Under the pieces are notes generated by a model. That model had not been told where the DNA came from and did no database searches. It saw only the letters and a list, made by a program, of their open reading frames with translations. A stretch of DNA of 63,874 nucleotides, the filler included, from Dugesia japonica (lineage: Eukaryota), in NCBI GenBank assembly GCA_001938525.1. It is 6 parts of 6 records of this genome, joined end to end, with 100 filler letters (N's around TTAATTAATTAA, not from the genome) between each part and the next. Parts side by side here need not be neighbours in the genome. Positions count along the whole stretch, not along the records: positions 8,843 to 20,800 come from MQRL01604890.1; 5 more parts are not named here. One strand, written 5' to 3'. Shown here in pieces: positions 13,586-54,374 of the stretch; position 1 is the first letter of the stretch; every line of letters starts with the position of its first letter. Made by a program: the position numbers and the translations under genes.

Positions 13586-14790
13586 ATGGAAACAACAAAA
13601 ATTAATCGTGATAATAATATTAATTTTCAAAATTTTTTTTTGAAAAATGAGGTTTTGAGAATTTCACCATCATCTGGTTCAATAAATAATTTAATGTGTT
13701 CTGGAGATATAGTTTTTCAATCTTTACAATCTTCAAATCCATTAGATATTTGTAATTCAATGTTATATTTTAAAGTAGAGATAACTGTTTCAGATAAAGA
13801 TAAAATAAGTTTAGAAAATAATTGGTTTCCAAGTTTATTCAAAACAATGAGATTAACTTTAGGATCTTCAGATGTAGAAATTATTAATGATCCAGGAATT
13901 CATCAACAATATTAAATTTTGTAACAACTAGTTCAATTTATAAAAAGATTTATGAAGAATTATCTAGATGGATTCCTGATGAAAATAATGGTGATTTAGA
14001 TGTTACTAGTTAGAATGCAAATACTGGTTTTTTTAAAAGAAAGAAACTTTATAATTCAAAAAATAAATTTGAAGGTTATTATACTTTGAAAAATTTATTT
14101 GGTTTTTTTAAATGTTACAACAGATTATTATACAACACAATGATTGAATTTACTTGTAATAGACAAATGAATGATAATGTAATATTTTATAGGGAAGCAG
14201 GTACAACTGCTACTTTAAAATTAATGACTCTAGAACTCCACATCCCAGAATGTAGATTAGTTCCAAAAATGGAAGTAAATCCTTTAGAAAGAATTTACAC
14301 AACTAAATCTTTTCAAGTTTCATTTTTAAATAGAATTACCACAAAAACGAATTTAGATTCAGGAAATTATTATTCAGTTAAACTGAGTAATTTAACTTAT
14401 AAACCAAGATATATATTTATTGGAATAAAAGAGTCAGAAATTTAATGTCAAAAGAATAATAATTTATTTATTCAACAAATTACTAAAACTGAAAATAAAA
14501 AAGAAGGGGCTGTTGAAAAAGAAGTTACAACCAAAAGCTCTATTAAAAGTATTCAAATACAATTAAACAATACATATTATCATATTAATGAATGTAAATT
14601 TAATATTTAAAATAATGAAATGATTTTTCCATATTTAAATTATGTAAATTGTTGTAAAGAATTTTTAACAGAACCACAATTATCTTTACAAGAGTTTGGT
14701 AATTTATACCAAATCTTTTGGTTTGATGTTAGTTCCCAAAACGATAAATTAAATATAAATACCGTAGATATAACTTTACATATAACATAC
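13586..14790 (+). pseudogene. Polinton double-jelly-roll major capsid protein (hexon-like), frameshifted
   Basis: ORFs 13556, 14086 and 14620 join: NSMLYFKVEI, LENNWFPSLFKTMRLTLGSSDVEIINDPG, WIPD, NTGFFKRK, LKNLFGFFKCYNRLLY, KPRYIFIG, IQIQLNNTYY, YQIFWFDVSSQ. These match the motif order I recognise in Polinton MCPs. Confidence 0.85.
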
Positions 14791-15042
14791 ATAGATCAAA
14801 ATATTTTGATAAATTTCTTAAAGAAAATTAAATTAATTTGTATCATAATAAAAATGAAGGTAAATCAGTCTTATTATTATTTAGATAAAGAAGCCGAAAT
14901 CTTAATGGAAGATTTATTTGAAGACTGAAATATCCCACTGGGAATCTGTGGTATTCTACTTCAACTTCAACTTTAGGTTCAACTTTATGTTAAAATCTTA
15001 TATAATTTCTTTTTCTTTATTAATATTATTTTTACGAAGAAA

Positions 15043-15580
15043 ATGTCTTCAGTTTCTGTACAAGAATTAATTGATTTGATAAATTCAAAAAAATTTAAAT
15101 CTGTAAAAATTAATGGAAAAATCTATTGGATTGAAAATAAAGTTAAAGAAGAACTGAAAAAGAAAATGGCAACTAGTAAAGAACATGAAGATGTATTTGC
15201 TTTTCTAGCTGTAATATCACCAATTATAGCTGGTTTAGCTTCTACAGCTAGAATTGCAACTGGTATAGCAAGTACAGTTAGTAATTCAAGAGATGCAAAA
15301 AAAGCAAAAAGAAACCAAAGTAGTAGAATTACAGAAAAAAGATTTAGAAAATAAAATTAAAAAAGAAAAAGAAATTGAATTATTAGATAAAGGTATTGCT
15401 TCAAAGAAACAAGGAAGTGGACTTTACTTATAACCATATTAAGGAAGTGCAATTCATAAATATTTCAAAAATAGTTTAGATAATTCAGCATTGAAAATTA
15501 TAACTAAAAACTTTAAGAAAGGAGTACAAGTTAAAATAAAAGGAGATGGTTTGTATTTAAAACCTTTTAAAAATGGATAG
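15043..15580 (+). pseudogene. Adenovirus pX-like core/membrane-active protein of Polinton
   Basis: EHEDVFAFLAVISPIIAGLASTARIATGIASTV resembles a decayed GG-FLPxLxPIIAG...GIAS motif; downstream repeats KQGSGLYL*PY and KGDGLYLKPF are GxG-type, putative adenain sites. Confidence 0.7.
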
Positions 15581-16418
15581 TGAACAAATAACAGGAAGAA
15601 TAAAACTTTTGCAAGATTTAATTAAAGCTTAAGATAATTATGATAATTTATTTACAGGTAATGTAATTGAATCAAGAACTTTACAAGATACTTTAACTAT
15701 TCAACAAAAACCTACTATTAAAGCAATTGAAAACTTAGGTAAAATATCTACAAACTCATTTGAAAAAAGAATATCATTCTTTTCTAAAATTAATTTAAAT
15801 ATTAAAAATTTATCACCATTAATTACACTAACATTTAAAATAGAAAATATTGATAATAAAAACTTTCTTAAGATAAGTTATTCTAATAAAGAATTATATT
15901 TATTTGAAGAAGATGGAAAGAAATACTTTTTATCTAAAGAAGAAATAATACCATTTTCTAAAGAAGTTATGAATTTAATTTTGGGAAATGGAAGTAATGA
16001 TCTAGAAGCAATTGATATTTATTTTAAAAAATTAAAAATTACATTTCCTACTAATTCTAAATATTGTCATTTATTAACTAGGAAAAAGCGAAGCTACTTT
16101 CAGTCACAATCAAGAGCGAACAACAAAAATACCAAAACTTAAAGAAGAAGTTGATAGTGAAAAAGAAATCCCAAAGAGTTCCTTTCCTGTAGAAAAACAA
16201 GAAATTCAAAAGGGACCCATTAAAGGTGAAGGTATAAACTCCAGAGAGCACCCTGACCCATTTCTTTGTTTGAAAGATTAACATTAATAATTTCAGCTGT
16301 AAAAGCCGGTCATAATAATTTAGAACAAGAAATTAAATCTGTTTGTAAATTATTATTAAACCAAGAAAATATTACTCACGAAAAATATAATGTTTATAAA
16401 AATAAATACTTTACCTAA
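15573..16418 (+). pseudogene. Conserved Polinton protein with C-terminal RLxLxxSAxxAGHNN motif
   Basis: Starts MDSEQITGRIKLLQDL...QKPTIKAIENL and ends ISLFERLTLIISAVKAGHNNLEQEIKSVCKLLL; contains stops and frameshifts. Confidence 0.65.
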
Positions 16419-16423
16419 AGAAA

Positions 16424-17529
16424 ATGTCTCATCAATTTTTAATTGTTGGTAATGAGTCTGATCTTAAGGTTAATTTAAGATTTCCTATAGAATTAGATTT
16501 AGAATATGAAATTGGATTATTATGTTTCAGTTGTTATAATATTATTTTTAATGTTACTAATAAAAATAATACTTTCTTATGTAATGATAAATTAATAACG
16601 ATAGAGCCAGGAGCTTATGAAATTAAAGAAATATCTAATAAATTGTCAACGTANNNNNNNNNNNNNNNNNNNNNNNNNNNNNNNNNNNNNNNNNNNNNNN
16701 NNNNNNNNNNNNNNNNNNNNNNNNNNNNNNNNNNNNNNNNNNNNNNNNNNNNNNNNNNNNNNNNNNNNNNNNNNNNNNNNNNNNNNNNNNNNNNNNNNNN
16801 GAAAATAAGATTGATATTTTAAATATTAATATGATAAATATAACTTGTAATTTAGTTTAAGGTAATTATATCAATAATTACTAATGAATTTATTACATTC
16901 TTTTCTAGTAAATTCTGTTGGTTTTGGTTTTAAAATTATAGAAAGACTTTATCCTCCAATTTATTCAAGANNNNNNNNNNNNNNNNNNNNNNNNNNNNNN
17001 NNNNNNNNNNNNNNNNNNNNTGTAATGATAAATTAATAACGATAGAGCCAGGAGCTTATGAAATTAAAGAAATATCTAATAAATTGTCAACGTATAAAAT
17101 TGAAGTTACGGCAGATCAATCAACAACAAAATGTAATTTAGATATAAAAGAAAATACAATTAAATTTNNNNNNNNNNNNTTTTTTCATACAATTTTAGGT
17201 TTTTTACTTAACCAGTATCCACCAGGAAAATATTATTCAGAAAATAAGATTGATATTTTAAATATTAATATGATAAATATAACTTGTAATTTAGTTTAAG
17301 GTAATTATATCAATAATTACTAATGAATTTATTACATTCTTTTCTAGTAAATTCTGTTGGTTTTGGTTTTAAAATTATAGAAAGACTTTATCCTCCAATT
17401 TATTCAAGATTAAAATCGAAACGTATTGATTGTTTAAAATTTAATATTATAGATGAAAATAATAATCCTATAGATTTTAATAGACAAACTATTTCTTTAT
17501 TATATCATATTAGAAAATGTATGGATTGA
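16424..17529 (+). pseudogene. Polinton minor capsid protein (penton-like)
   Basis: FPIELDLEYEIGLL, YNIIFNVTNKNNTF, ITIEPGAYEI, ILGF, INITCNLV, LLHSF, GFKIIE...PIY, IIDENNNPIDFN; partly duplicated around gaps. Confidence 0.85.
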
Positions 17530-18020
17530 AGTCCTACGGGATCCTAGACTTTTTGAAAACATTTGGAATAAATACTAAAACTAATTTTGATTTGTATTCT
17601 ATTGCTGATTTTTTAAATCTTGATATAGAGGTTTTAATGAAATATTAATTAAGCGCCACGCAGGGCGCACTTTCTAAAGATAAAAATGACGACAGCGGTC
17701 TTCAAAAATTAAAAGATAAAAATAATAAATCGGTCCCACGGGACTAAATTTCTTTAATAATTAATTATCAAAATTCAAATCAAAAAGGAACTCATTGGGT
17801 TGCTTTTTCTCCCAACGGGGCCCAAGGATATTATTTTGATTCTTATGGATTAAAACCTTTTAAAAAAATAGAATAATATGTAAATGTTTCTAATAAAATT
17901 CAAGTCCAATTTTTTGGAACTTGTATTTGTAGAGTTTTATGTTTATATTTTTTATATTCACTTACATCCAAATCTTTTAATGAAATAATTAATGAATTAT
18001 ATATTAACTTAAATAAATAA
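17517..18020 (+). pseudogene. Adenain-type (C5) cysteine protease
   Basis: Manual translation: IINYQNSNQKGTHWVAF, YYFDSYGLKP, QVQFFGTCICRVLCLYFL (His/Asp/Cys triad order; CG mutated to CR). Confidence 0.88.
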
Positions 18021-18775: not shown

Positions 18776-19150
18776 ATGAATCCTAAAATACTTTTTAAAT
18801 TAACTATTTTATTAACAAAGAACTCATTACTATATCATTCTGGATTAACACCATTTAAAATAAAAAGAAAAGGAATTTTAAAAAACATTAAAGAAAAACC
18901 ATATAAATATTATTTTCTCGATGAACCATTAGAACTTTATTTTTATTTTAAAAAACTATTAGAGCAAGTAATTTTTTTATTTATTGGTTATACTGATATT
19001 ATTTATTTTAAAATCTATATAGTAATAATTAATAAACTAGAAGAACATGAATTTAATTTTACTTAAAAAGAATTATTTTATCTTTCAATAAATATTAACA
19101 AAATTTTAGAGAAACATAAACCAATAGAAAGAATTACTTTAACTTTACCA
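18776..19150 (+). pseudogene. Unknown viral ORF
   Basis: ORF 18776..19066 is co-oriented and tightly packed within the cassette; no recognised motif. Confidence 0.4.
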
Positions 19151-19249
19151 GCAANNNNNNNNNNNNNNNNNNNNNNNNNNNNNNNNNNNNNNNNNNNNNN
19201 NNNNNNNNNNNNNNNNNNNNNNNNNNNNNNNNNNNNNNNNNNNNNNAAT

Positions 19250-19942
19250 CAAAATACCAGTGGGTCCTATCCCAACGGCTCCCATCCCAAAGGGTCCCAT
19301 AAATATCCTGATTTAAATGAATATATTTATAAAAAATTTGAGTATACAATTAAAGATCAAAAAAACACTATAGAAGATTTAAAAGAAAAATTATCAGATT
19401 TAAGAATTGTAGATTTTGAATCAGATTTTTATTTTATTGATGATAAAATTAACTATTATAAAAAGATTTATAAAAGATGGAGAAGATTAGATACTTCGAT
19501 TAGATTTACAGAAATATTTTTTGGAACAATTGTTGGAATAAATGNAACTATATTAATTTCTTTAGGGACGATAGTAACTTCAGGAATATTGGGAACTATA
19601 GTTCCCATAATATTAACCACATCAGTTTTTTGTATTCCAATAATTGGTACTTTGAATTCATCTTTAATAAAAGCAAAAAAGAAGAAGTATAAAGATTTAA
19701 TTCATGAATTAGATACTGTTAAGAATAAATTATTTTNNNNNNNNNNNNNNNNNNNNNNNNNNNNNNNNNNNNNNNNNNNNNNNNNNNNAATAAGCAAAAA
19801 TATGGTTAAACAAGTTAAAGATTTAATTTTCCATGAAAATAAAATTGAAAATGATTTATTAAAGAAACTTGAAGAACAAATCGTGCTAACACAAACGAAG
19901 TGCGAAAGTCAACAGAAAATAATAAATAAATTAAAAAAATAA
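19250..19942 (+). CDS. Polinton membrane protein (hydrophobic hairpin plus coiled coil) with N-terminal YPDL
   Basis: Open frame KYPDLNEYIY...YYKKIYKRWRRLD, then hydrophobic FFGTIVG..ILISLGTIVTSGILGTIVPIILTTSVFCIPIIG, then KAKKKKYKDLIHELDTVKNKL; 5' end lies in an N gap and a second N gap falls inside the ORF. Confidence 0.65.
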   Translation, partial: QNTSGSYPNGSHPKGSHKYPDLNEYIYKKFEYTIKDQKNTIEDLKEKLSDLRIVDFESDFYFIDDKINYYKKIYKRWRRLDTSIRFTEIFFGTIVGINXTILISLGTIVTSGILGTIVPIILTTSVFCIPIIGTLNSSLIKAKKKKYKDLIHELDTVKNKLFXXXXXXXXXXXXXXXXXXISKNMVKQVKDLIFHENKIENDLLKKLEEQIVLTQTKCESQQKIINKLKK

Positions 19943-20286
19943 TTTCTATTTTGAATTTCTCATTTTTACCCTTTAAAATCCCAAAGGTTCCCATCCCCAC
20001 AAATTACAATTTAATTTTAGATTTTATAAACCGGTTTATAAAACTTCTTTTTCTTTTAATTTTGAAAATGAGAACTGCAGTTCCCAATTTATAAAACGTC
20101 TTAATTTAATTTTAAAAGTGTCTACTGCAATAGACAACTTTAGGTTTTTGTTTGTTTTAAATTTTAAAGTGTCGTCAAATTTTGAACCTTAGTAATAAAA
20201 CTTCTTACTTATTTTTATATTAAACTCCTTTCAGTCGTGAGTGGAAACGGAACTACAATTTAATTTTTGTTTTAATTTATCTAAGG

Positions 20287-20800
20287 TTAATGCCACTCAC
20301 TACTATTTTCGCATTTAAATTTATTACCATGTGGCCATGTTCTTACACCATTATCTTCAATTAGGCTTTTATCATCATATCCTGTTAAAGCAATCTTTTT
20401 TTGCTCAACCAATTCTATTTCATGTTTATTTGATTTTAAACTATAATTTATTCCAAAAATATTTTCTTTTGAGTTTAGTGCCTTATCAAATTCTTTCATT
20501 CCTATTNNNNNNNNNNNNNNNNNNNNNNNNNNTCGTTTGTCTAATTGCGCCCTTTAGGATTGTCAAACTCATAAGCATAACTTTTTGCTTTTATAAAATC
20601 ACATTTTGTTATTTCATTATTAAGTTTCTCATCTTTCATTTGAAATAATTTATTACCTAATAAACTTTCAACTTTTGTTAAATTATTTCTACCTATTGTT
20701 GGGTATTCGAACTCAACAAAAGATTTTATGGTTCGTTATAAAATAAATTATTCCCAATTTGGATGTTTATCTTTTGTGTATGTAAATACAATACTATATA
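20287..20800 (-). pseudogene. Protein-primed family B DNA polymerase, C-terminal part
   Basis: KSNKHEIELVEQKKIALTGYDDK...NGVRTWPHG matches the typical Polinton pPolB ending (KxALxxxDDKR...TxxxG); upstream KAKSYAY motif. Confidence 0.85.
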
Positions 20801-20900
20801 NNNNNNNNNNNNNNNNNNNNNNNNNNNNNNNNNNNNNNNNNNNNTTAATTAATTAANNNNNNNNNNNNNNNNNNNNNNNNNNNNNNNNNNNNNNNNNNNN

Positions 20901-34300: not shown

Positions 34301-36299
34301 GGAATCTTTGATACTAGCTATGTACTAGCAAGATGAGTTATAGTGAGAATGAAATAAAGATCCGGGAAACAATATTGAATACAGCACAAACATATTTTAG
34401 ATCAGGATTTACTTTTTACGCAAATTAATGAGTTGCATACAATAAAATCTAAAGAAACAGCTTTAAGCTTTACAATGAATCATTTTTATAATTTTCTTAA
34501 TACAATAAATGGTGTTCGTATTTTTAATTCCTTGGGAGCACACAAAAAAGATTAAAAATAATGATAGGGATTGAAAGATCTCTTGTTAAACATTATCTAA
34601 GCTGTTTTAAGTGATGGGATAATATATTTTGCTGATATTCCCATAATCTTGTTGAACTTGTTCACATTCTTTATTAATTGTTTAAAAAATATATTACTAT
34701 TCAATTTTTTTGTATATTATTTTTCTGGGTCACATGTTACATGTGATATAAAAATTCAGTTTTTAATTATTTACTAGTGACAAATGAATTTTCAAATTAT
34801 AAAATTAATAATATCTCTATTAATTATTTATCACTCAATTACAAAATCACATTAATTACATAAGTTGATGATTAATTTTAAAACAGTAAAATGATGTAAT
34901 TCTTAAAATTTCCATTCGATAATTTTAAAATTAATTTGAAGTAATTAATTATACAATCCAAAATTTATATAAAATAAAAATTTTTGTAATTCATCGATAT
35001 TTATTTTGTTTAATAGCTTCAATTAAATGAACTAAAATACCATATTTATAAAATTTTTATTTAATATTATGGGATTATGGAATTATTTGAAACTAAGAAG
35101 CATTATATAATTATTAACGGTTCAGTAGCCTTATTCTGCGATAGATTAAGTGGTTATATTAGCTTTTCTGAAGGTATTTTGGTAATATTTTTAAAATTTT
35201 AATGTCACAATATTAGCTAGTGAATTAATTAACGAATGGAATCCAGTTTGTTTAGGTACCATTAAAGGATTTATAGGAAAGCTAAAATTCTTTACAGGTA
35301 ATTATATTAATTTTATATTTTTAAAATATTGAAATCGTAATTATGGAAAGAAATTTCATTACTCTCAAATATTTGTTAGTAATTGTTAATAAATAACCTA
35401 ATTTTTTCTTTCAAATTATTTTATTTCTAAACAGTTAAAACACAATGTTCTAAAAATTTTATTAAAAAATTTCAATTATCATAACATTTATAAATTGAAA
35501 AGATAAATATTTTTTATCACAATCATTTAAAAACTAAAGAAACACACATTGAAAATTTATTCTGTGTGCTTTTTAATGTTTCTTATAGATAGCTTAATAA
35601 AAATCATTAAATAAAATAAAAATAAATCTAAAATTTCTTGAAAAATTTTGAATTTATTGTCATATATTTACCACTGTATTGATTTAAATTCTAATGTTAC
35701 ATGAAAACATCATTGATTACTTGCGAGTAATTTACAGTACAAATTAATTTGGGCATCATGCCAATCAATCTCAACTAATTCATTACTTAATTGTTTACAC
35801 AACAATTTATTTGTTTTGGAGTAATCTAAAAGTAATAGCTTTACAAATGTTTGAAATGTGTTTATAAAATTACTCAGTATTGAATTACAACAGTTTAAAC
35901 CGCTTTCAAAATACAAAAACATCTGCACAATATTTTTATAATTATTAAATAAATATTTTACAATTGCAAGAATTATTGCGAGAATAATTGTTGGACATAA
36001 CCATTGATCGTTTTATAGAATTNNNNNNNNNNNNNNNNNNNNNNNNNNNNNNNNNNNNNNNNNNNNTTAATTAATTAANNNNNNNNNNNNNNNNNNNNNN
36101 NNNNNNNNNNNNNNNNNNNNNNGCAAAAGTTGTTTGTATACATTGGTATAAAAATAAAAAAGCACAGTAATATAATATAACCATCAACACAATATAGTAT
36201 AACAATTATCAATTTAAGGTATTCTCAATCATCAACTGTTAATTTTTAATTGTTTTTGAACGTTAATATCCTTCAACTATATTTTACAATCTATATAGT

Positions 36300-42943: not shown

Positions 42944-45003
42944 AACCTAAGAGATTTTTGAATTCTTTACTGATCTAAATCAGGGGGCTTTAACCGGTGA
43001 TGTGTTTCGATTTTGAAAGGAGATATGTACATTTTTATATATACATTTATATACATTTTAAAAACTATGCTATGAAGTTCTCACCTTACTAATGGAAAGC
43101 AGCAACTATTATCTCATTAAGGCAGGCCTAGATTTCTTCAAAAAAATGTTTTCTTTCTTAGGTGACGTAATAATGTCAAAAGTAAAATCATATTCATTAA
43201 ATATATTTCAATTTATTGTTAATTTTGAGTATATATGTGAGATTAACTAAGTAAAATCAATTTTAGTGGAGGTGTAAATGTAAAAATTAAGAATCTGTGG
43301 TCTTAATCATTTTACGAAAAATAATTAATAGCAATGTTTTAATGATATTGTAGTTAAGAATTTGTTAATAGAAAAATATTATACTTTTGTTGAATTCAAT
43401 TAAATTAAAGAATTCAATTGGAGCAAATTAATTCAAGTTGAACCAAAACCATTATCTTGATAACATCGGATCTTTGCAAATTTCATTTTTATGTCATATT
43501 TCTTCATTATTATTTATCAATTTATTCATTTCTATTCATTAAATATGAAAATGAATTATTTAACAAAATTTTGCCCGTCTAAATTGGTTCTGCCAATTTA
43601 ACATAATAACAACCAAAAGAAATTTACAGAAATTCTTATTAAGCTAATGTTGTAATAAGAAACAGAAATCTGAAAACAGTTTCAAAAACTCTTATAACTC
43701 TAATTACTAAATCTTTTTAATTTTTCTTTCAAATGTAATTAATACCAATCAGTTCCGTCAAGCTAATATTTTCGTTATGGAACTGTCTGTTGGAGACTTT
43801 ATGTGTGACAACAATAGAAAGACGAGAGCTTACAGTCTACCAAACTAAGTTTTTTAATATTTAATATCATATACTCATCATATAATATTTAGATGAGTTA
43901 TTTATTTGATTAATTATTTATTTGACCAATTTCTAATAACATAAAAATAAAGAAAAATTATAATGTTATCGTTAACCAAACACAGATTGTAACGAAGCCG
44001 ACACAATACGTTTAATACTTGATTTTTTAAGTACCCCCGAACTAAGGATACTTAGAATTCTTAGTATATTTCTATAAACCTGGATGTGTTGATTTTGATG
44101 GTTTTTAATACTAATGATAAATGAATTAAAAGTTTAATAATTTTTTTAGTTGTATATGAGAAAATAGATCATTTAATTGTGATATTTAATATCATATGAA
44201 CCCAGTAAACTAACATTTAGTTACGTGGCACGCTAAAACGAAAATATTGAACAATAATAAAATATAAATTATTTAATTAAAATAATAGCTTCAATCAAAA
44301 TGTTATTTTTGTTTGTTTCTTCTTTNNNNNNNNNNNNNNNNNNNNNNNNNNNNNNNNNNNNNNNNNNNNNNNNNNNNNNNNNNNNNNNNNNNNNNNNNNN
44401 NNNNNNNNNNNNNNNNNNNNNNNNNNNNNNNNNNNNNNNNNNNNNNNNNNNNNNNNNNNNNNNNNNNNNNNNNNNNNNNNNNNNNNNNNNNNNNTTTTAT
44501 TGATTATTGTTTTAGATATTATGATTTTTATTGATTTTTTTTTCATTGGCCTACACGTAACAGTTTCACAGTAAAATAATTTTTCATTAATATGGTAAGT
44601 ACATATTACAATTTTGATTCAATTTCCGATTATTTTATTTCAATTATTCATTGAAAAAAAATGAGAACTGGTGAATTAAAGTGAAATCTTTCAATTTGTT
44701 AAAAAAAAATTTCCAAGAAAAATTCCTTTATATTTATCCAAAAATGTATAAAAAATATTAAACTAATTAAAAATTTAATATTAAAATATTTAAAAATTAG
44801 AATTCATTTAATATAAAAGCTTAGATCAGAATTTAGGTTTTATATTAAATGAATTCTATAAAACGATCAATGGTTAAGTCCAACAATTATTCTCGCAATA
44901 ATTNNNNNNNNNNNNNNNNNNNNNNNNNNNNNNNNNNNNNNNNNNNNTTAATTAATTAANNNNNNNNNNNNNNNNNNNNNNNNNNNNNNNNNNNNNNNNN
45001 NNN

Positions 45004-53731: not shown

Positions 53732-54374
53732 NNNNNNNNNNNNNNNNNNNNNNNNNNNNNNNNNNNNNNNNNNNNTTAATTAATTAANNNNNNNNNNNNN
53801 NNNNNNNNNNNNNNNNNNNNNNNNNNNNNNNAGATTTGTCCGAAACATGTATTAAAAATAGATGTTTTTTAAAGAAATTGCGTTTTCTTATTGTATATAT
53901 ATAATAATATTTCTGTACGACTTGAAAAATGGTCACTAAATTCAGTGCATATTAAAATTTGATATTTATAATTTTAATATTTATCGATGATTACGTTTAA
54001 TTTGAAAAATTCTGATATATAAATAATTATAATATATATTTAGCATAATTAATCAAAAAGTCCATCAGGACCACTTTATTAATATTAATTTTAAAATCAA
54101 AATCAACGAAATATGTAATTTATTCAATTATATTAAACCAAAATGAAATATTAACAACCGAAACAAAAATTAAAATTTCCATTTATTAAAACAATTTATA
54201 ACGATAAATAACAAAAAGTTAATTAACATATTTTTAGTTTTTTTTTNNNNNNNNNNNNNNNNTATTAAATCCAAAATTATTCTCATTATTATTATTTAAT
54301 TTGTTATTCTAACTTTCCGACCGACAAAGATATTTTTTTTTTAAAAAATTAATCCAAATCAATTATTTCCAAAC

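Follow-up and report, generated by a model that had tools for sequence, protein, structure and literature searches.

The window contains a decayed Polinton/adintovirus element

The window, by which we mean the whole stretch of Dugesia japonica DNA analysed in this study (63,874 nucleotides), contains a decayed Polinton/adintovirus element that is fragmentary and gapped. As shown in Table 1, the element retains a capsid fragment, a broken protease gene, the gene of a two-helix membrane protein and polymerase-like fragments. The polymerase-like tail matched proteins of L002 and L005 in tblastn searches. The L002 protein has polymerase-type motifs, from which the label of the window's fragments follows; no polymerase match was found in Pfam, PHROG or PDB. 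The membrane protein gene was convergent with the polymerase-like gene in the window, L002 and L005, and protease and fibre-like genes lay upstream of the membrane protein gene in L004. Relatives of this gene were encoded at no fewer than 7 metagenome loci. Contigs matching positions 18900-20500 numbered 2286 in run X1, which is possibly the source sample, and 2403 in run X2. Since most of them were 82-95% alike, the element belongs to a family with many diverged copies. One raw RNA run yielded 18 partial reads, none of which was 95% alike; this result is neutral as to expression.

Table 1. Positions of the genes, motifs and repeats of the element in the window.
Feature	Position	Strand	Description
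Double-jelly-roll major capsid fragment	14014..14442	+	PF21738, E 1.1e-9, 38.4 bits vs cut-off 27
Adenain-like protease gene, broken	17490..18002	+	Peptidase_C5 E 0.004 (below cut-off); tblastn with L004 protein E 7e-17
SLATT-like two-helix membrane protein gene	19247..19942	+	Decayed Polinton/adintovirus copy; relatives by phmmer, best E 1.5e-17
GC-rich tract holding the PTAP codons	19251..19300	+	Three imperfect 15-base units
PTAP	19272..19283	+	Different frame from the ORF; probably a DNA-repeat by-product outside the protein
YPDL	19304..19315	+	In frame; the family's best-conserved tail motif (ALIX-type YPxL/I)
Apolar stretch, predicted membrane hairpin	19505..19669	+	55 residues; 7 Lys/Arg per 18-residue flank on both sides
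Near copy of the GC-rich tract	19975..20000	+	20/26 bases; between the membrane protein gene stop and the polymerase tail
Predicted family B DNA polymerase, C-terminal fragments	20323..20642	-	tblastn E 2e-6, 2e-9

Downstream of the capsid gene, an ORF (14977-15354, +) encodes an apolar segment that looks amphipathic, with a basic tail after it. By likeness, it may be the Cupiennin or protein VI-like gene of adintoviruses; it had no Pfam match above the cut-off. A region that looked penton-like by eye (16406-17529, +) is present in two exact copies around gaps (16580-16653 equals 17021-17094, and 16801-16970 equals 17240-17409), which is probably a scaffolding duplication. Exact duplicates of a similar kind were seen at 12619/13124 and 20934/21555. 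Spacers of 100 N with TTAATTAATTAA in the middle are located at 8743-8842, 20801-20900, 36023-36122, 44904-45003 and 53732-53831. These are artificial scaffold joins across which the order is uncertain, and one of them lies just past the polymerase tail. Upstream of the Polinton, translations revealed decayed non-LTR and gypsy-like retroelement fragments at 1266-3677 (+) and 4210-6166 (-).

YPDL is in frame with the membrane protein ORF

The frame of the membrane protein ORF stays open between 19247, at the edge of a gap, and the stop codon at 19940-19942. One gap of 92 N (19155-19246) lies directly upstream of the ORF and another of 52 N (19737-19788) lies inside it. No start codon was seen in the ORF frame between 19247, where the 92-N gap adjoins, and YPDL. 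A preliminary description of this locus had placed YPDL in frame with an ORF for a hydrophobic hairpin, and PTAP upstream in the neighbouring frame. In this study, the coordinates and frames of both motifs were confirmed, the PTAP frame being offset by 2 mod 3 from that of the ORF. The PTAP frame reads IKIPVGPIPTAPIPKGPINILI and then meets a stop codon at 19314-19316. Over all six frames, the window holds 11 occurrences of YPxL. When the ORF body was shuffled, YPxL appeared among codons 1-20 in 4 of 3000 replicates. The residue before the window YPDL was Lys; a hydrophobic residue was found at this position in 37 of the 39 motif-bearing relatives.

Late-domain motifs are conserved in the N-terminal tails of the family

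In the available text of two reports, ALIX is the binding partner of YPDL and TSG101 that of P[ST]AP (PMC8402826, PMC4880917), and YPXL/I is named as an ALIX/PalA motif in the title of Vincent et al. 2003, cited in PMC2171039. It is on these bindings that recruitment of ALIX and TSG101 by the membrane protein is inferred here. Relatives were collected with phmmer against 50% representatives (17 relatives) and with word searches (1, 7 and 29 relatives); two profile searches had tail columns in the profile. For 15 of the 17 hits from phmmer, the best-matching stretch did not include the query YPDL, and therefore the family search was not driven by the motif; YPx[LIV] was present in 14 of these 17. 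No relatives were found when viral_contigs was searched with P0005 and alignment A4. The census included 43 proteins with an N-terminal tail. Proteins that start within the core (P0043, P0045, P0046), cut or broken sequences (L002, L004, L005, L007), L001, which is identical to P0025, and a fusion to a reverse transcriptase (P0022) were excluded.

YPx[LIV] was present in 39 of the 43 tails, compared to a mean of 1.67 and a maximum of 7 over 2000 shuffles, which ignore the kinship of these related proteins, many of them near copies. Outside the tails of the same 43 proteins, there was no occurrence of YPx[LIV]. YPxL proper was found in 28 tails, P[ST]AP in 22 (shuffle mean 0.06) and [PA][ST]AP in 26. 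Both motif classes were present in 23 tails, and P0016 was the single protein with neither. When the set was thinned to less than 50% core identity (n = 15), YPx[LIV] was retained in 13 proteins, YPxL in 10, P[ST]AP in 5 and [PA][ST]AP in 6, and none of the 15 lacked both motifs at once. By these counts, ESCRT-type late-domain motifs are strongly conserved, beyond chance, in the tails of the family. Their presence before the transmembrane hairpin in intact homologues, which the preliminary description had named as a check, was borne out in 39 (YPx[LIV]) and 22 (P[ST]AP) of the 43 tails.

Three of the four tails that lacked YPx[LIV] had P[ST]AP instead (P0004, P0011 and P0041), and PPxY was found near the C-terminus of L003 and P0015. 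In the available text of PMC8402826, late domains are exchangeable and several classes may be present in one protein; the replacement of YPx[LIV] by P[ST]AP and the additional PPxY are the swapping expected of late domains. The Tyr was located anywhere from residue 5 to residue 89 and the flanking sequence was unconserved, as expected of short linear motifs. P0022, which is joined to part of a reverse transcriptase in a 29-kb contig, keeps VYPKL before the core. The fusion is likely to be either a retroelement insertion or a join made by gene calling.

Since every YPx[LIV] also satisfies the Yxx-hydrophobic pattern, the motif could be a clathrin-adaptor tyrosine sorting signal or another short motif, with P[ST]AP as a lineage-specific feature and ESCRT as secondary. 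The frequent Ile and Val at positions -1 and +3 agree with this; before the Tyr, Ile equalled Leu in frequency, and 11 of the 39 motifs had Ile or Val at +3. P[ST]AP was present in 5 proteins of the thinned set of 15 and, in the window's clade, in 1 of 10. [LM]YPx[LI], a strict ALIX pattern, fitted 15 of the 43 tails. A plain tyrosine sorting signal needs no Pro at +1, but the Pro after the Tyr was near-invariant in the family, and Y-nonPro-x-hydrophobic was found in 6 of the 43 tails compared to 24 expected. The description of YPXL/I as an ALIX/PalA motif, in the title mentioned above, also argues against a sorting signal, and the co-occurrence with P[ST]AP in 23 of 43 tails points to a single pathway. 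We consider a sorting signal quite unlikely as the main role of the motif.

The tail is predicted to face the cytosol

An apolar stretch of 47-65 residues was found in 36 of 38 proteins. Of the 38 proteins whose length allowed scoring, 36 had net basic charge on both flanks of the hairpin; the N-termini were hydrophilic. Under the positive-inside rule, which is established knowledge, basic flanks on both sides would place both ends of the protein in the cytosol. The tail carrying the motifs is thus predicted to be cytosolic and not luminal. On this prediction and the motif counts, the proposal of the preliminary description that a Polinton membrane protein presents late-domain motifs to the cytosol withstood the refuting check which that description had set, namely intact homologues with neither motif or with the motifs on the luminal side; the interpretation as a whole is partly supported.

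A structural model of P0005 (pLDDT 69.5, pTM 0.53) was consistent with this arrangement. Its first 20 residues were helix-free (pLDDT 54-59). After them, one long helix extends into the apolar segment and is linked by a hairpin turn, modelled with low confidence, to a second long helix; a further helix lies at the C-terminus. The model predicts a disordered tail and a hairpin flanked by long helices.

The membrane protein is weakly SLATT-like

Burroughs et al. 2015 is reportedly the original paper on SLATT (SMODS- and SLOG-associating 2TM) proteins. Two adjacent transmembrane helices, a feature of SLATT, were present in the family as judged from the apolar stretch and the hairpin of the model. 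In Pfam, 13 of 15 proteins had no SLATT match and none of the 15 scored above a cut-off. The best match was that of P0021 to SLATT_1 (14.7 bits, below the cut-off of 26.3; E 0.033), and P0008 had a sub-threshold match to SLATT_fungal (E 0.1). SLATT-annotated giant-virus models accounted for 7 of the viral fold matches among the 50 listed (E 0.04-0.25). Atlas gave SLATT clusters at 0.76-0.80, which serve as leads only, with 10 of 10 in one clan; clusters from Mollusca, Nucleocytoviricota and Preplasmiviricota were also listed there. The window ORF itself had no Pfam family above the cut-off and nothing useful in PHROGs. The profile, fold and Atlas results give weak support to a SLATT-like protein. 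Because the scores fell below every Pfam cut-off, we use the label SLATT-like and do not call the protein a SLATT member.

Genes labelled 'SLATT' appear in the adintovirus maps of Starrett et al. (PMC8502044, supplement Fig. S2), and SLATT genes are described as widespread in cryptophyte PLVs in the accessible text of PMC12220804. These viral genes resemble the window's gene in having a two-helix hairpin with flanking helices and in being stand-alone genes of a Polinton-type genome. The likeness to the published adintovirus SLATT, described as a putative pore, is drawn from the label and from the weak matches to this clan. Unlike the family studied here, the published SLATT descriptions make no mention of a late-domain tail in the portions available.

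The likeness to predicted pore formers bears on what the protein would do with ESCRT. ALIX and TSG101 might be recruited for a purpose other than virion export, with the SLATT hairpin forming a pore that serves lysis or abortive infection. The protein could sort itself into multivesicular bodies or vesicles, which would restrain a toxic pore until late; alternatively, ESCRT could be diverted from membrane repair, or membranes could be remodelled at the replication site. All of the motif evidence fits these possibilities equally, and Gly, Ser and Thr are abundant in the apolar stretch. SLATT proteins are predicted pore formers, and abortive infection or lytic egress has been proposed for these viruses in the accessible part of 10.64898/2026.10.13.758929. 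On the other hand, the retention of two, in some cases three, late-domain classes is usually the mark of a budding protein in the available text of PMC8402826, and pore activity of a viral SLATT was not reported in the portions of the SLATT literature examined. We regard recruitment without virion export as rather unlikely.

Another possibility is an entry pore carried by the particle for endosome escape, in which the tail would position the protein or particle at ESCRT-rich endosomal membranes. Such a role has been hypothesised for the SLATT genes of cryptophyte Polinton-like viruses (PMC12220804, accessible text), and the gene adjoins fibre-like and protease genes. An apolar hairpin of 55 residues would, however, be hard to carry in a lipid-free particle, and support from virion proteomics was not found in the parts of the literature examined. 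A particle-borne entry pore appears quite unlikely.

The PTAP of the window and the membrane protein gene

In the preliminary description, PTAP was considered a genuine part of the original N-terminus of a frameshifted copy, and one indel in the A-run at ~19301 would join it to the ORF. Several observations agree with this proposal. The PTAP at 19272 was the single occurrence of P[ST]AP across the six frames of the 64-kb window, at a distance of 20 bases from YPDL. Dinucleotide shuffles of 19247-19303, a null that takes no account of the repeats in the tract, produced P[ST]AP in only 56 of 20000 cases (0.28%). The motif is also frequent in the family; ASAP lies ahead of YPxL in L003, and P0031 and P0033 have proline-rich, in-frame PTAP repeats.

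The repeat content of the DNA argues for a different origin. PTAP was read by only one of the three 15-base units of the GC-rich tract, and a near copy of the tract recurs past the stop codon of the membrane protein gene (Table 1). CCCAA[AC]GG occurred 4 times in the 6.8-kb element compared to 0.02 expected; two sites are in the PTAP tract, one is past the membrane protein gene stop and one is within the protease gene. A hairpin word like that of the PTAP tract was also found in L005. As DNA, the tract folds weakly (about -4 kcal/mol). In one X1 contig, the GC tract was fused to another gene segment, at 18903.

An assembly slip was not supported as the cause of the frame offset between PTAP and YPDL, since an X1 contig of 129 bases was identical to 19247-19375, across the junction, with no mismatch and no gap. 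Among the indels listed (12 of 24), the sole length difference near the junction was six letters long and frame-neutral, and was found in one X1 contig and two X2 contigs. The indel for which the preliminary description had suggested a check of the reads was not supported by either result.

The order of the motifs in the relatives also stands against a genuine PTAP. Where a relative has both motifs, YPxL comes ahead of P[ST]AP in 22 of 23 cases. Within the clade of the window (9 rows; support 100/99; the window branch is long), PTAP was present only in P0004. Among the 10 closest relatives, 9 have a start that precedes the Tyr by 5-13 residues and carry no P[ST]AP. A PTAP lost from the protein by frameshift is rather unlikely, and the proposed joining indel is probably wrong. 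We find it rather likely that the PTAP lies outside the gene and is a by-product of a short DNA repeat. Support for the late-domain reading is stronger across the family than for the window's own copy.

Short GC-rich, hairpin-like words were seen elsewhere in these AT-rich elements, some within coding frames. The sites were 17641-17680, 17801-17830, 19251-19300 and 19975-20000 in the window, 1981 in L004 and 483-545 in L005. These scattered words may be tiny mobile insertions or signals.

A candidate ESCRT-recruiting adaptor of Polintons

In the mechanism that we favour, the N-terminal YPxL of the Polinton membrane protein would recruit host ALIX, and P[ST]AP, in many relatives, would recruit host TSG101. 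The hairpin protein with its cytosolic tail would gather ESCRT at the membrane in which the hairpin sits; from the sequences, we consider this step likely. Naked Polinton capsids might then leave the cell inside membrane vesicles. The virion as cargo is the weakest step, drawn by analogy with bluetongue virus NS3, and for non-lytic exit of capsids in the manner of NS3 the chances seem to us about even. The same even judgement applies to the combined proposal that the YPxL/P[ST]AP tail recruits ALIX/TSG101 and helps naked capsids to leave in membrane vesicles. More broadly, Polintons and adintoviruses of this group might be quasi-enveloped, a SLATT defence pore having become an NS3-like exit adaptor for vesicle budding through the addition of retrovirus-style ALIX and TSG101 late domains to a bacterial-type SLATT pore. 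We put this forward tentatively, as somewhat short of an even chance.

The size of NS3 is about the same as that of the Polinton membrane protein. NS3 belongs to a non-enveloped orbivirus and likewise has two transmembrane helices and late domains. In the available text of PMC7409164, it carries PSAP and PPRY with basic motifs before the first helix, drives non-lytic exit and has viroporin-like activity. It differs in using TSG101 and NEDD4 and in having a glycosylated loop of 21 residues, whereas the Polinton protein has an ALIX-type YPxL and a short apolar turn. NS3 was absent from the viral fold matches among the 50 listed, and we treat the likeness as functional only. The YPDL of EIAV p9 and the PTAP and LYPXnL of HIV-1 p6 are the same short motifs in a flexible segment, with several classes together (PMC8402826, available text). 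Retroviral late domains are part of Gag, a structural polyprotein, in enveloped RNA viruses, whereas the motifs of the family are on a membrane protein that a DNA virus encodes separately.

The best fold matches to the P0005 model were uncharacterised invertebrate iridovirus proteins of 214-276 residues, namely S6DF61 (E 1.3e-4), A0A5B8RH66 (E 8.2e-4) and A0A068QKD3 (E 2.6e-3). The comparison is by fold alone, at 14-18% identity and with a high rmsd on a helical fold. Tiger frog virus, also an iridovirus, is described in the available text of PMC4880917 as budding via ESCRT. Within the tentative quasi-envelopment proposal, these fold matches suggest that the same module may serve large DNA viruses too.

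No link between ESCRT or late domains and Polintons, adintoviruses or viral SLATT was found in the literature covered, which included few subscription papers and no preprint supplements. In the accessible parts of previous reports, SLATT is either a putative pore or unmentioned (PMC8502044, PMC12220804, PMC11131425, PMC9503650, 10.64898/2026.06.19.733378, 10.64898/2026.10.13.758929, 10.64898/2026.09.30.755861, 10.1101/2025.10.09.676808). The term ESCRT was absent from the available text of those of these papers in which it was sought. Published guesses on viral SLATT, in the text at hand, are entry pores, abortive infection and lysis (PMC12220804, 10.64898/2026.10.13.758929). A link between ESCRT and Polinton or viral SLATT proteins is likely to be new to the literature.

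The proposed mechanism bears on how Polintons leave cells and spread; the role of viral SLATT is stated as unknown in the parts of the literature available. A conserved ALIX/TSG101 tail could be tested concretely and cheaply on short peptides and on intact relatives found in nature. If the proposed mechanism is true, elements presumed to be ancestral to many DNA viruses of eukaryotes would be tied to the retroviral budding route, and a defence-type membrane domain would have been refitted for a eukaryotic host pathway. Polinton particles should then be sought in extracellular-vesicle fractions.

Polintons have other membrane-active genes with which the protein may be compared. These are GasderminX, Cupiennin and PLA2X of adintoviruses (PMC8502044, in the part available) and the fusogen of nematode Mavericks, which differ in being described, in the excerpts available, as entry or membrane-disrupting proteins. 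Gasdermin and phospholipase profiles gave no match to the family, and an identity with GasderminX was dropped for lack of a gasdermin profile match. Nor do we propose a BAR-like role; the PDB matches (Foldseek E 0.1 or worse, Z up to 11.3) were generic helical bundles and BAR domains, at a level common for helical proteins. Ranid herpesvirus 2 ORF81 and ORF97 and several pithovirus proteins were weak matches to the model (E 0.02-0.2).
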